The notes below the pieces were generated by a model. The model was not told the DNA's origin. It searched no databases and saw only the letters and a program-made list of their open reading frames with translations. A DNA stretch of 64,000 nucleotides. Origin: Thermoplasmatota archaeon. GTDB lineage: Archaea > Thermoplasmatota > Thermoplasmata > Thermoplasmatales > Thermoplasmataceae. Made by a program: the position numbers and the translations under genes. Shown here in pieces: positions 51,992-56,019 of the stretch (the first letter of the stretch is position 1; every line of letters starts with the position of its first letter). Location of the stretch: the NCBI GenBank assembly GCA_023484805.1, contig JAMDAM010000009.1:3561-67560 (forward strand), read 5' to 3'.

Positions 51992-52264
51992 GTGTTTCAG
52001 CGTCTGGTAACTGTTTTGCCTGATGATAATAAAATCTCGAAAACCCTGAGGAGCGTTCCAGGATATGTTACTGTTCAAAATATACTCAGATTCATAGGCC
52101 TGGCACTGATAGTTATAGCTGCAGGCTTCTATATCGGGTGGTCCATAATATATAATACCTGGACGGATATCGGACTTTACTCGTTTGTTGCTCCAGTCTT
52201 TGTATTCGGGATATTAACTCTTATGTACGTCCAGGAAAAATACCACGGAAGCACAGAGAACTAG
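51992..52264 (+). CDS. Small membrane protein (2 TM; start uncertain)
   Basis: Two hydrophobic helices flanking WTDIGLYS. Confidence 0.65.
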   Translation: MFQRLVTVLPDDNKISKTLRSVPGYVTVQNILRFIGLALIVIAAGFYIGWSIIYNTWTDIGLYSFVAPVFVFGILTLMYVQEKYHGSTEN

Positions 52265-53880
52265 GCATTCCTGGCATCGATTATTGCCTTCTCCCTTTCT
52301 GTGCATAATATCCTGACTTTCCTAAGATGATTTTCATATGAAAAGAAACACTCTGAGTAAGGATCTGATCTCCCTCCAAGTAAGGTGGCAAAATTTACAC
52401 CTATAAACCCATTAAATCCGGGAATTGCAAAATCTCCCGAATTGGAGGATCTGGTACGAAAGCCGAAAATCCTTGCACTGTTTAGCAGAAGAGATTGGGA
52501 CCTGGGATTCATGAAAAAATCCTCTGGATTCTGGGTCATGCTGATAATGGAAGTGTTATAATGACGCGAATGGCGGGTAAGCGTGTCAAGGAGCTTTGAA
52601 CACTCAGCACAGTCTATCAGATTATGTGCCTCGTCCACCAGGACCATCTTCTTACTGTGAGTCGAAGTTATCATGGAAAGTATTGATAGCAATATGGAAA
52701 TCGTTGAGGGTTCATTGCTAGAACTTACGACATGCCCTGGCCTGAATACGATCACCTGGCTCTCCTGGATGACAATTTCATGCATGAAAACAGACGACAA
52801 TAGTTCTGATATCAACTTTACTGAGTCTGGAATGACCTTTTCATTTGATAGTAGACGAAGGAAGCCATGCATGCTCTTCATACCCTCAGTGTGAAGGTAT
52901 TCAGACAGATAATGCCTTAGAACCCGGATATCATCTGCAATTCCCCTGTCAAAATGAATGAGCATTGAGATGAAAGCATCTATGGTTTCGGGATTATTAC
53001 TGGAAACTCTCAATGGATCTATGTATTCCCCACTCCCGACGTTAACAACCGTGCCACCCCCTGGAAAAATAGCAGCATCATACTCGCCCAGTGGATCGAT
53101 TATGTATACATTATCTACGGCGGAAGTCAGTATCGCCCTTCTTACCATGAGTTTAGTAAAGAAAGATTTGCCAGAACCCGTTTCACCGAAAGACAGCACG
53201 TTGAATGAATTCCCACCGAATATGTTAATGAACACTGGCTTTTCTGTCAAGTCGTCCACACCAATGGCAATACCACCACCCTCAGGGACTGGTTCAAAAT
53301 GAATCGGAAGTATGCTGGCTACTGACAGTGAATCCATCAGGTAGCGTCCATTCGTATCATTGAACGGGCCCAATGAGGATATAATTTCTTTTCGTGTGAT
53401 TCTCTGTCTGATTTTCATTATTAGCCCAAGATATTCCAGTGACCCAATGACCCTTCTTGCGCTTCTGGATAATTCTATCGGATGGTCGCTTTCTAGGACA
53501 AGCTGAAAATCTGTTCCATACACCCTTCGTCCATTTTCAGAAATGCTCCTTAGAAGAGATTCCAGGGTTTCCACATGCCTCTTGAGGCGAAGTGCCCGGG
53601 TCCTGTCCTTCCTGTCCTCGTATTTCATTTCAGACTTCCGTGAAGCATGCAGCCTTTTTATGGTTCTTTCCGAAGCCTTTTCAGGCAAGGATGAAAGCGA
53701 TATTCTCTGCCTCATCCGAAGATTCGTTGATTCCAGAAGTGAGCAGTACATACCTGCAGAGTCATAGTCTCCATCGACAAGTGAAAGGAAAGCGCGATAT
53801 TGCGATAGTTTTACCTGTGGCCCGGATATCAAAAAACGTTGATCAACTAAAAACTTCTGTTTATCTCCCACTCTTTTCAC
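52261..53880 (-). CDS. VirB4-like (HerA/FtsK superfamily) ATPase
   Basis: GETGSGKS, IIDPLGEY, VLVDEAH, R..RHY, TQN; operon context. Confidence 0.85.
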   Translation of the reverse strand: MKRVGDKQKFLVDQRFLISGPQVKLSQYRAFLSLVDGDYDSAGMYCSLLESTNLRMRQRISLSSLPEKASERTIKRLHASRKSEMKYEDRKDRTRALRLKRHVETLESLLRSISENGRRVYGTDFQLVLESDHPIELSRSARRVIGSLEYLGLIMKIRQRITRKEIISSLGPFNDTNGRYLMDSLSVASILPIHFEPVPEGGGIAIGVDDLTEKPVFINIFGGNSFNVLSFGETGSGKSFFTKLMVRRAILTSAVDNVYIIDPLGEYDAAIFPGGGTVVNVGSGEYIDPLRVSSNNPETIDAFISMLIHFDRGIADDIRVLRHYLSEYLHTEGMKSMHGFLRLLSNEKVIPDSVKLISELLSSVFMHEIVIQESQVIVFRPGHVVSSSNEPSTISILLSILSMITSTHSKKMVLVDEAHNLIDCAECSKLLDTLTRHSRHYNTSIISMTQNPEDFFMNPRSQSLLLNSARIFGFRTRSSNSGDFAIPGFNGFIGVNFATLLGGRSDPYSECFFSYENHLRKVRILCTEREKAIIDARNA

Positions 53881-54629
53881 TCAATCCCGATAAAAGTATC
53901 CTGTGATAATTGTTTCAAAATCCCCCTGCCAACTTCGTCTTCACTTATTATGTCCACAACGAGACCAGACCTCTGCAGGTTTTCTTTGAATTCCTCTGTT
54001 TCTTTCCTCATGGTGTCGATCTGCGGGGGCTTACCCTGCTTGACCCTGAAACTGAGGAAAAAGTATGGTTTATAAAAGATTGAATCACTTGCAAGAAAGG
54101 AGACCAGTCCATCATAATCCATGGAGTCTTCATCTTGCAATCCTGTTATATAACTGGACAGATCTGCTTTGATGGGCAGAGCCATTACTGTCAGTTCTGC
54201 CGTCAATTGATCTATTGATTTGGATATCGCTGAAGCTTCGGCGATTATCTCACCTGATTTCATCATTTGATAGGGCAAGCCACCTGCACAGATGACTGAG
54301 AATATCCTGTTTTTATCCCTGAAGATGCAGATTCCACTGCTGCAGTCCATGGTTATCTCGTACCTCAGCATGCCCGCTTTTCGATGAAACAGTGATAAAA
54401 ACCTATGCATTACGGTTGAGGGCAGGAATCCTTTGTCAGTTGGAAAAAGAGTAAAAATGGATCCCCCGGAAGCAACTACAATGGAGACCAGCATATTGAA
54501 ATGAAAAATAATTGCAGAAATGATGAAGAGAAGTGCAATCGCTGAAATCTTCCTTGCGTCCATTCCTCCGATCCTGGGGGTGTAATTCCTGACGTTAGCG
54601 GGAATCCTCACTCCTTGCCCTTCTCCCAA
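53877..54629 (-). CDS. PrgI/VirB3-like membrane protein with cytoplasmic extension
   Basis: V.IPANV.NY.P.IGGMD.R N-terminus + 2 TM; AGGTGA RBS; coupled to the ATPase by a GTGA overlap. Confidence 0.65.
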   Translation of the reverse strand: MGEGQGVRIPANVRNYTPRIGGMDARKISAIALLFIISAIIFHFNMLVSIVVASGGSIFTLFPTDKGFLPSTVMHRFLSLFHRKAGMLRYEITMDCSSGICIFRDKNRIFSVICAGGLPYQMMKSGEIIAEASAISKSIDQLTAELTVMALPIKADLSSYITGLQDEDSMDYDGLVSFLASDSIFYKPYFFLSFRVKQGKPPQIDTMRKETEEFKENLQRSGLVVDIISEDEVGRGILKQLSQDTFIGIE

Positions 54630-54633
54630 CTGA

Positions 54634-55695
54634 TCACCTTACCCTCCTGTATTTTAATTTCTCATTCTCGACTGATTTCCAATCGATGCCATTATGCGGC
54701 TGCATTCCCGTTCTAAGTGGACCAGAGTTTCCCTTCTCTTTGTTCCATACGGGATATGAAAGCATGTTTCCAAGATTGGACAGGCTTGTATTCCCGGCTA
54801 GCACGGATCCGGCATATCCAACCTGGGATGCGGCTCCAGATATTACTGATGCAGCGGAAATTTCACCATACGCAGATTGAAACGAGGCAAACCTGTAAAT
54901 CATGGAGTTCGACATTATAAGGGTTGGAATAAGAGAGGCAAGGGTCAGAAAACCTATTTGCAGAATGAAATCGCCATAAAAAATGTGAACAAGAACGAGT
55001 AAAATAACCACAAACAACGGGAGAATTGCGGATTCCGCGAAGAGCATCCATAATTTTATTGCAATCTTGGAAGATTCACGTGTTATAAGGAAAATGCTGA
55101 ATACTGGCAGCATCAGTGTAAGGAAAATGATAATCGCCTGCCTCACTATTAGCATGCCAAGCATGGCAAAGGTTGCAACGAAAAGCCAGCTAAGAAGGAA
55201 AAACTCAATAAGCGCATTGGAAGATCCAACCTGAGCTAGAGGGATTGAAATGTTGGAGGAGATGTTTGTAACAGAAAGAAGGCTAAACCAGTTTATGCTG
55301 TCGTATTCCCAGAGAATGCTGTATGCATAATACGAGACCTGGACAATGAACTGGCTTATTCCCACACTGCCAATGAATATGACAACTGAAGCAGAAAAGC
55401 GCAGGCCGAACTCACCCAGACCCACATTCCCTCCGATTGAAGATGAGAACAGGATGAATATGGAGACAGCAACCATTGCAAAGGCCGCAACCTCAAAATA
55501 TAGGTTGTTAAGAATGTAATAGTAAAACCCCATAAAAGAAGAGTTCTGGCCAAGCAGAGGAAAGGCATAAGACGGTTGTAACCCGTACTTGACAAGGAAA
55601 TACCAAAACCCTCCGATAAGCCCGACATACGCTTCATCCGCAAGGTAAATGATTATGGAAATCAGCTTTGGGATATCGGATAAGATGGACAGCAT
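54634..55695 (-). CDS. VirB6/TrbL-like polytopic membrane protein
   Basis: About 7 TM helices, R...I......P pattern, G/A/S-rich cytoplasmic tail. Confidence 0.65.
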   Translation of the reverse strand: MLSILSDIPKLISIIIYLADEAYVGLIGGFWYFLVKYGLQPSYAFPLLGQNSSFMGFYYYILNNLYFEVAAFAMVAVSIFILFSSSIGGNVGLGEFGLRFSASVVIFIGSVGISQFIVQVSYYAYSILWEYDSINWFSLLSVTNISSNISIPLAQVGSSNALIEFFLLSWLFVATFAMLGMLIVRQAIIIFLTLMLPVFSIFLITRESSKIAIKLWMLFAESAILPLFVVILLVLVHIFYGDFILQIGFLTLASLIPTLIMSNSMIYRFASFQSAYGEISAASVISGAASQVGYAGSVLAGNTSLSNLGNMLSYPVWNKEKGNSGPLRTGMQPHNGIDWKSVENEKLKYRRVR

Positions 55696-55702
55696 GAGGC
55701 CA

Positions 55703-55990
55703 TTACCCTATTGCCACATAATTGAAAACTGCGTAGATTACCCCGCTTATTGCCAGTACGTAAATCAATGTACCAATCAGTGCGTTTTTTAGCCTGCCCC
55801 TTGCCTCAAATCTCTTGTTTTCATCTGTACTGAAGAAACTCAGTGCAATGGGTATCCATAGCAATGCAACTACCACGGCAGAAATTGACACAACAACCTC
55901 AAGCAACCTACTCAGAGCCCCTGACAGCTGGGAAGTGGATGAAACATAACTCAAGACCTCAATTATACCTATTTGTGATAATGATGCCAT
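55703..55990 (-). CDS. VirB2/TrbC-like pilin
   Basis: 95 aa; two hydrophobic helices separated by DENKRFEARGRLKNALIG. Confidence 0.7.
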   Translation of the reverse strand: MASLSQIGIIEVLSYVSSTSQLSGALSRLLEVVVSISAVVVALLWIPIALSFFSTDENKRFEARGRLKNALIGTLIYVLAISGVIYAVFNYVAIG

Positions 55991-56013
55991 TATTTCACTA
56001 TATTAATGAGTTG

Positions 56014-56019
56014 TATAAA
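56014..56019 (-). promoter_or_regulatory. TATA box of the pilin operon (probably a leaderless transcript)
   Basis: TTTATA on the minus strand 24-29 nt upstream of the ATG at 55990. Confidence 0.5.

Follow-up and report, generated by a model that had tools for sequence, protein, structure and literature searches.

A probable host-owned, conjugation-derived operon in the chromosomes of Thermoplasmataceae archaea

The window analysed here is a 64,000-nucleotide stretch of the genome of a Thermoplasmatota archaeon (GenBank assembly GCA_023484805.1, contig JAMDAM010000009.1, positions 3,561 to 67,560), and it contains a compact operon of four minus-strand genes that resembles the core of a type IV secretion system (T4SS). 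Gene 1 (55990-55703) starts with ATG and encodes a pilin-like protein of 95 residues; gene 2 (55695-54634) encodes a VirB6-like membrane protein of 353 residues; gene 3 (54629-53877) starts with TTG and encodes 250 residues with a PrgI-like and a TrsD-like part; and gene 4 (53880-52261) starts with GTG and encodes a VirB4 ATPase of 539 residues. An original prediction had placed four open reading frames (ORFs) here, and on re-measurement the spacings between them were, as it gave, 7, 4, and -4 nt. The TATA box that it saw is present as the archaeal element TTTATACA (56012..56019, minus strand), which begins 29 nt ahead of the pilin ATG; an A/T box likewise lies upstream of the pilin in most relatives, positions -29 to -21 being 78 to 95% A/T across 61 relative loci, and TTTATACA is likely to be the promoter of a leaderless operon. 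A scan for sigma-70 promoters and terminators was uninformative. The source genome is 71% complete, and the operon window sits on a 73-kb contig.

The four proteins of the operon

Gene 1 is a predicted VirB2-type pilin. Its two hydrophobic helices, residues 32-50 and 71-89, flank a charged loop and account for the two segments of the hydropathy profile, and the T4SS character anticipated for this two-helix protein is borne out by Pfam and NCBIfam. Pfam T4SS_pilin (PF18895) matches the window copy with an E-value of 6.3e-5 (23.4 bits, under the 26.6 cut-off) and is matched by 24 of the 27 aligned family members at E ≤ 0.01, the best at 1.7e-8, and the NCBIfam model for pilin-like proteins of integrated conjugative elements (ICEs), NF045849, matches the window pilin with an E-value of 1.2e-4. 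At family depth, conservation within the operon is highest for the pilin, at 48 to 63% outside the genus compared with 22 to 38% for genes 2 and 4. Neither TedC nor CedA1 is among the PDB matches of the pilin profile at E ≤ 1, an absence that carries little weight with such small proteins, and profile-profile comparison of the pilin with gene 2 returned a probability of 0.6%.

Gene 2 probably encodes a VirB6-like polytopic channel protein, its structural scores being modest for a helical protein. The roughly seven transmembrane (TM) helices of the original prediction correspond to seven hydropathy segments; no Pfam T4SS family matches the protein, and its AlphaFold model has a predicted local distance difference test score (pLDDT) of 72. 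With Foldseek, ranks 1 to 4 were taken by R388 stalk (TrwJ-TrwI) chains with the length of a VirB6, the best with an E-value of 0.019 and a probability of 0.97. With VIA-align, a Dot/Icm DotA-IcmX chain came first (Z 9.9, root-mean-square deviation [rmsd] 5.5, 223 residues aligned), where Z alone is weak for a helical protein, and the R388 stalk chain scored Z 7.4 (rmsd 6.3, 208 aligned). The VirB6-like assignment carries weight because two programs put T4SS channel chains first. At the C-terminus (about 54640-54690 of the window) there is a low-confidence variable tail and then a majority-conserved W...LxYR, a possible docking site.

Gene 3, expected to be a PrgI-like protein with two TM helices, fits that description in part: the two-helix hairpin is there, and about 160 of the 250 residues form instead a domain like the N-terminus of VirB4. 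On the evidence of the model, the protein is a probable PrgI-like two-helix anchor fused to a VirB4-N-terminal-like (TrsD-like) domain, with a PrgI/VirB3-like membrane hairpin at residues ~25-61 and a soluble domain at ~88-250. The model (pLDDT 79) contains a hairpin of two helices where hydropathy gives one strong segment. For gene 3, VIA-align placed residues 17-224 of TrwK/VirB4 first (Z 9.3, rmsd 3.6, 154 aligned), the runner-up being an EccE-containing ESX-5 chain (Z 7.8), and Foldseek found TrwK with a probability of 0.99-1.0 and an E-value of 0.008-0.016, slightly below ESX-3 chains. Pfam PrgI is matched by one of 20 gene 3 members (E 0.0012), so that the PrgI half would rest on shape, position, and fusion pattern. 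TrsD is the name used for a separate protein resembling the VirB4 N-terminus (PMC12102498); the label is applied to gene 3 from that description and the TrwK fold match, not from a TrsD profile. Profile-profile comparison of gene 3 with the N-terminus of VirB4 itself gave a probability of 1.2%. Gene 3 seems to be fused to VirB4 in 28 of 52 loci, as judged from an ATPase ORF of at least 560 residues that starts right after gene 2.

Gene 4 is, by its sequence, a soluble VirB4-class ATPase with intact catalytic motifs. All the motifs ascribed to it are present (GETGSGKS, DPLGEY, DEAH, RHSRHY, and MTQ), with the Walker A at about 53187-53164 on the minus strand, and residues G232, G235, G237, K238, D262, P263, E417, R436, R439, and Q450 are invariant in all 28 aligned VirB4 homologues. 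The NCBIfam models conju_CD1110, VirB4_plasma, and TraC-F are each matched by 28/28 members, and the CedB model by 17/28 (best 1.7e-13), far more weakly than CD1110; the window protein does not reach the equivalog cut-offs set for the named families (98 of 590 and 74 of 325 bits). A HerA identity was considered and rejected: the family profile finds VirB4 (4ag5) as the best PDB entry with an E-value of 7.8e-24, ahead of HerA-type entries at 1.3e-14, and the conjugative VirB4 models match every member. What the original prediction had named as fatal to it, an ATPase grouping with HerA and membrane proteins lacking T4SS folds, is thus not what was found.

Inheritance and a mobile relative

The operon is best described, from comparative sequence data, as a host-owned (domesticated) conjugation core and not a decayed ICE, because it sits in the chromosome, is passed on vertically, evolves under purifying selection, and has no linked mobility genes, and we are highly confident that it constitutes a functional domesticated T4SS core. 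A VirB4 turned up in 34 of 41 genomes from the order and in 23 of 24 relatives from the family of the source genome (f1), the 24th having a pilin less than 1 kb from a contig end, where the locus breaks. In a phylum-wide draw of 251 genomes searched at E ≤ 1e-20, VirB4 was present in 16/16 f1 genomes (8 of them shared with the 41-genome set), 2/2 of family f5, 5/5 of f9, and 1/3 of f6; the remaining families had none. The operon is single-copy in the source genome. Close relatives of the pilin occur at 63 loci in Thermoplasmataceae, Thermoplasma, Ferroplasma, Acidiplasma, Cuniculiplasma, and E-plasma records; these loci were chosen by a pilin pattern, which biases them toward intact pilins, and after 11 with contig ends within 3.7 kb had been set aside, all 52 assessable loci were intact. 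One of the 63 (L182) comes from a record titled "bacterium", with archaeal flanks and a pilin 95% identical, the title probably being unspecific or wrong.

The housekeeping flanks that were part of the original prediction are recovered by Pfam as DHNA/mptD, NTPase_1, and 4HBT; the trm1 and rpiA labels are those of the original prediction. Thioesterase, rpiA, mptD, and NTPase flank the operon in the window and in most f1 loci, and the thioesterase neighbour is found in 42 of 55 loci with room upstream. The remaining window is core chromosome, including SMC, tyrS, fen1, radB, dnaK, and ftsZ (52 other ORFs scanned, E ≤ 1e-25). The claim that the 64 kb hold no mobility or coupling gene stands for the window, where none was matched; it does not extend to the genome, where a VirD4/HerA-like ATPase exists, the whole-genome search placing the sole TrwB-domain match on contig C3 and the sole integrase match on C35. 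There is no tRNA in the window, no direct repeat flanking the operon, and no integrase on its contig. Relaxase searches of the 25 f1 genomes including the source, with PF03432, PF13814, and the HUH protein described below, gave 0/25 each, other relaxase families not having been searched and archaeal relaxases being poorly covered by profiles. A plasmid search gave best matches of 22 to 30% identity, none over 62% of the query.

Ratios of nonsynonymous to synonymous substitution (dN/dS) in three congeneric pairs are 0.06-0.09 for the pilin, 0.07-0.09 for gene 2, 0.21-0.26 for gene 3, and 0.15-0.19 for VirB4, and in these pairs dS of the operon is similar to that of the housekeeping flanks, two more distant pairs being saturated. 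A tree of pilin, gene 2, and VirB4 from 28 genomes, made without G060 and G028 (the operon of G028 is split), recovered 11 of 13 RpoB splits with SH-aLRT support of at least 95 and no starred conflict; the operon and RpoB trees have 13 splits in common, compared with 0.2 under shuffling.

Some observations pull away from the overall reading proposed here, that of an inherited chromosomal core serving DNA exchange. The operon has evolved ~4.4 times faster than RpoB. It lies in pieces in G012 (50% complete) and G026, the housekeeping neighbours of G012 being broken too. Deletions have removed the greater part of the helical domain between Walker A and B from several VirB4s (alignment A4, columns 670-790; for example L038, L044, L046, L058, and L049), with the catalytic motifs all kept. 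A remnant of an ICE, decaying or still mobile, would account for such fragmented copies, among which is also L200, one of the 11 set-aside loci, with VirB4 in three pieces. It would also suit base composition, since the operon has a GC content of 0.42-0.44 (genome 0.467) and a third-position GC (GC3) of 0.42-0.48 in its four genes, slightly lower than the 0.50-0.54 of the flanks, and the homologous operon within an ICE-like island of G029 and probably of G027. A remnant is nonetheless very improbable for a near-universal, single-locus, tree-congruent operon under purifying selection, intact in 52 of 52 loci, for which no window tRNA, flanking repeat, contig integrase, or relaxase was found. 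The patchiness, relaxed selection, and relaxase or integrase linkage that the original prediction held would count against it are accordingly not the pattern observed.

The ICE-like island is about 69 kb long (958821-1028237 of contig C1; L255-L258 and L053) and lies in G029, a complete genome from another family of the order. It holds an integrase at 958.9 kb, relaxase-like and VirD4 genes at 974-976 kb, and, at 1,014.7-1,023.7 kb, five pilin-domain genes followed by homologues of gene 2, gene 3, and VirB4; it also carries cargo that we take to be CRISPR-like. A 17-bp direct repeat (E 0.003) bounds it, the two copies being separated by about 69 kb, with a tRNA-Arg nearby, and G033, a complete congener of G029, has no pilin and no VirB4. 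In G029 and one further genome, the two outside f1 that have VirB4 without the VirD4/HerA-like ATPase, a different, TM-bearing VirD4 (132 bits in G029) is found with a small HUH-motif protein just before it, which has weak relaxase matches (E 0.003-0.016); in a PF03432 search of the 41 genomes exactly these two were matched, under the cut-off. The G029 island thus looks like an ICE carrying a homologous T4SS module, and that of G027 is probably another. ICEs with VirB2, VirB4, VirB6, and VirD4 are known from archaea (PMC5797428), and because the island carries the same module, it supports an origin of the operon from a conjugative element.

Within the VirB4 family the f1 proteins form a long-branch clade whose position was left open in a FastTree tree of 143 rows. 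A second tree joined the clade to one with two Ca. Sysuiplasma-cluster proteins (support 96), and monophyly with other Thermoplasmata VirB4 copies was not rejected by the approximately unbiased test (p-AU 0.34, the group having been picked after the first tree). CedB, TedB, and named Patescibacteria sequences were absent from these trees.

Several further observations concern relatives of the operon. The ~190-residue HUH protein of G029 is a candidate archaeal relaxase, a class that reviews call unidentified. Of the five pilin-domain genes in the G029 array (L053, 12826-17685), four have N-terminal extensions of 250-340 residues, and one in G027 (L051, 13092-14885) measures 597 residues; these extended pilins likely carry extracellular adhesion domains. 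In three f5 genomes (L052, L054, L055, and L249) gene 3 and VirB4 adjoin purL, with no pilin or gene 2 there, and the G028 pilin is on a separate contig. Family f9, from a different order of the same class, has the identical four-gene order at four loci (L160-L166), and one of its genomes (G204) has at least three VirB4 copies, two of them placed elsewhere in the tree.

A second ATPase and the proposed function

The VirD4/HerA-like ATPase of the source genome (G000) has 656 residues and is encoded at 17529-19496 of contig C3 (L069, 9530-11500), unlinked to the operon; it is the only other FtsK/HerA-type ATPase of the genome. In the source genus its gene lies 40 nt past the last gene of an archaellum-like cluster, whose members we take, from their translations, to be fla genes. 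The coupling-protein DNA-binding domain is its best Pfam match (49 bits, above the cut-off; 16/16 members), and CedD its best NCBIfam match (51.4 of 600 bits). In its C-terminal tail, H441...D471...E484xE486 is kept in 14 of 14 orthologues and is missing from two paralogues of family f3 in the alignment. We take this H...D...ExE arrangement to be of the PD-(D/E)xK kind; no Pfam family covers the tail, and its Atlas neighbours with an assigned family are PD-(D/E)xK types (score 0.81, a lead only), which makes the tail a candidate PD-(D/E)xK-like nuclease site. A MOBC relaxase was tried for the tail and rejected, PF13814 matching in 0/41 genomes.

The second ATPase is found in 21 of 24 f1 genomes, with shifting neighbours, and in one Thermoplasma and one Cuniculiplasma record. 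Among the 16 genomes outside f1, eight have VirB4 together with the second ATPase, five have neither, two have only VirB4 (G029 and one other), and one has only the second ATPase. In two f3 genomes a paralogue comes directly after VirB4 in the operon (L060, 2068-4107; L061, 10332-12365); it has 677-679 residues, an N-terminal extension, and no nuclease motif, and it overlaps the VirB4 end. That the second ATPase is a partner of the operon is plausible. A complex prediction with VirB4 (195-539) and the second ATPase (1-430) scored 0.00, which is no evidence either way.

We lean, slightly, toward a Ced/Ted-like role in the exchange of DNA between cells, import-type and probably inward, feeding recombination and repair. 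In Sulfolobales the same three-part core serves DNA import, and in Aeropyrum and Pyrobaculum it makes pili (PMC9905601, PMC11823120); ComEC was found in 0/41 genomes searched, against 10 of 14 positive controls; and Ferroplasma, whose records carry the operon, shows extensive recombination in its populations (review PMC2704941). DNA exchange is favoured because archaeal systems with the same core carry it out, because ComEC was not found, and because Ferroplasma recombines. The second ATPase also speaks for it indirectly, through its coupling-protein domain, its conserved nuclease-like motif, and the f3 paralogue that comes right after VirB4. In such a machine the two-helix hairpin of gene 3 would anchor the soluble VirB4 at the membrane, and its soluble domain would pair with the N-terminal domain of VirB4 itself, a pairing that suits the apparent fusion of the two genes at about half of the loci. 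VirB4 could then power extraction of the pilin from the membrane onto the VirB6-like base, and the resulting hollow pilus or pseudopilus would contact another cell. In most lineages the unlinked VirD4/HerA-like ATPase, with its nuclease-like domain, might act as the DNA pump or processor, comparable to the unlinked CedD of Sulfolobales.

A number of points tell against this role. DNA transport is argued by analogy with Ced and Ted, and pilus formation and expression are predicted. HerA, Rad50, and ParA were not recognised beside the operon, unlike in Ted, neighbours outside the window being unlabelled. The second ATPase has no TM segment and is unlinked in f1, and a PDB search places HerA above TrwB for it. 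It was not found in two Ferroplasma records and one Acidiplasma record, and the three f1 genomes that lack it form one clade, with no TrwB-domain match either and with the operon intact. Since CedD is essential for import in Sulfolobus (PMC9905601, PMC11823120), a DNA role fits poorly in that clade, and T4SSs without VirD4 can be adhesins, protein exporters, or DNA importers (PMC12857230).

The intact operon of that clade would suit a pilus for adhesion or contact only (biofilm, cell-cell, or symbiont attachment), with no transport, for which Bartonella Trw is a precedent (PMC12857230). The pilin is also the most conserved part at family depth, and G029 and G027 have pilin-domain proteins whose large N-terminal parts are likely extracellular. 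We nevertheless hold a purely adhesive pilus to be unlikely: Trw-type adhesins diversify and multiply their pilins (PMC12857230), whereas here there is one conserved pilin with a dN/dS of 0.06-0.09; genes for type IV pili are already present in Cuniculiplasma (PMC5155288); and a coupling-like ATPase is retained in 21 of the 24 f1 genomes.

The direction of transfer could also be outward, in a host-owned donor machine whose unlinked ATPase-nuclease cuts and pumps chromosomal DNA in place of a relaxase and coupling protein. The parts are nearest to export-type conjugative VirB4s (CD1110, 28/28), the second ATPase combines a coupling-protein domain with a conserved nuclease-like motif, and in the mobile cousin a TM VirD4 occurs together with a relaxase-like gene. 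A donor machine seems rather improbable even so: the ATPase is unlinked, one clade that keeps the operon intact lacks it, the studied archaeal analogue is an importer, and pure export would presumably bring the donor no direct benefit that could explain near-universal retention.

The cultured genera of the family are free-living, and variable cargo, effector, or immunity genes do not recur beside the operon, whose flanks are fixed housekeeping genes. Both observations count against translocation of proteins or small molecules into neighbours, in antagonism or symbiosis, which we judge a shade less probable than a donor machine. It has been proposed for the relaxase-free T4SS of Patescibacteria, where a parallel set of VirB2, VirB6, PrgI, TrsD, VirB4, and a distant type IV coupling protein (T4CP), with no relaxase, is essential for epibiotic growth (PMC12102498).

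Convergent to the operon on the plus strand (51992-52264 of the window) is an unannotated gene for a 90-residue protein with two TM segments and invariant Y-W-W-D-G residues. It was considered as a fifth part of the operon or an anchor of the second ATPase and set aside, since 40 of the 41 genomes from the order have it, operon-less ones included.

Earlier records and comparison with known systems

The operon has been listed before. Golyshina et al. 2016 (PMC5155288) gave CSP5_1185-1189 and CPM_1190-93 of Cuniculiplasma divulgatum as type IV secretion components, comprising a membrane protein (arCOG05340), VirB4 (arCOG04034), a multipass protein (arCOG05369), and a Thermoplasmatales-only membrane protein, together with an unlinked VirD4-family ATPase, CSP5_0791. 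Matched by description, this is very likely the same cluster, and one Cuniculiplasma record carries both the operon and the second ATPase. The passage that lists them neither assigns a pilin, VirB6, or TrsD nor analyses inheritance, and it gives no function. VirB4 of E-plasma has a one-line mention in PMC10354927, and no functional or family-wide study of the operon was found in the literature searched, which left out subscription journals and supplements. According to Beltran et al. 2023, domestication of a conjugation apparatus for DNA transfer was unreported outside the organisms with Ced and Ted.

If the proposed role is right, the operon would be a second archaeal case of such domestication, one whose architecture differs and whose mobile cousin survives, spread through a family of cultivable acidophiles; it would offer a concrete knockout target for recombination in ComEC-less cells, and structural work would gain one of the smallest T4SS cores found in nature. 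This is tempered by the 2016 listing, by the similar domestication known in Patescibacteria, and by a DNA role argued from analogy. A broader scenario, which we consider possible and still doubtful, is that an element of the mating-pair formation type FATA (MPF-FATA) was domesticated in Thermoplasmatales independently of Ced and Ted, that its mobile form, with integrase, small HUH relaxase, TM VirD4, and pilin array, survives in the order, and that homologous DNA exchange in the family runs mainly through the tamed core, with the nuclease-fused coupling ATPase replacing the relaxase. Were this so, it would identify the machine still missing from accounts of the high recombination in acid-mine populations of the Ferroplasma type, and would give a first entry point to DNA processing by relaxase-free archaeal systems.

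The Ted system of Thermoproteales (TedC, TedA, TedB, and TedD; PMC9905601, PMC11823120) is like the operon in being a chromosomal, relaxase-free set of VirB2, VirB6, and a single VirB4, in having the pilin gene followed directly by a gene for seven TM helices, and in its second, VirD4-like ATPase. The operon differs in belonging to another phylum and in its PrgI- and TrsD-like gene, which is placed between the channel and ATPase genes or fused with the latter, VirB3 homologues being described as absent from the crenarchaeal Ced and Ted systems (PMC11868833). Its second ATPase is unlinked and nuclease-tailed, a paralogue standing inside the operon in f3, and HerA, Rad50, and ParA were not recognised in the locus. 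The Ced machinery in Sulfolobales and Desulfurococcales (CedA, A1, A2, B, D, and E) has in common with the operon a domesticated T4SS core, an unlinked VirD4-like partner, a pilin without an obvious signal peptide, and acidic habitats; the operon differs in having one pilin rather than two and in both ATPases being soluble, and UV induction and import have been shown for Ced only. By profile scores the operon is not a Ced orthologue, scores against CedB being 33.7 of 700 bits for its VirB4, and against CedD 51.4 of 600 for the second ATPase.

With MPF-FATA systems (pGO1 TrsC/TrsD/TrsE, pCF10 PrgH/PrgI/PrgJ, and CTn2 CD1110; PMC4027160) the operon has in common its VirB4 class, an apparent VirB6-VirB3-VirB4 order, and a separate TrsD-like domain; unlike those systems it is not linked to a relaxase, T4CP, VirB8, or wall hydrolase, includes a VirB2 pilin, and is chromosomally fixed. 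The chromosomal T4SS of Patescibacteria (PMC12102498) has a set that the operon seems to match, of VirB2, VirB6, PrgI, TrsD, and VirB4 with no relaxase and a mostly distant T4CP, and is vertically inherited and widespread. It belongs to bacterial epibionts, with pilin arrays and hydrolases, and no VirB3-VirB4 fusions are reported for it in that paper, in contrast to the apparent fusions at 28 of 52 loci here. In composition the operon stands nearer to the FATA-type and Patescibacteria systems than to Ced and Ted, its likeness to the latter being one of proposed function, drawn by analogy.

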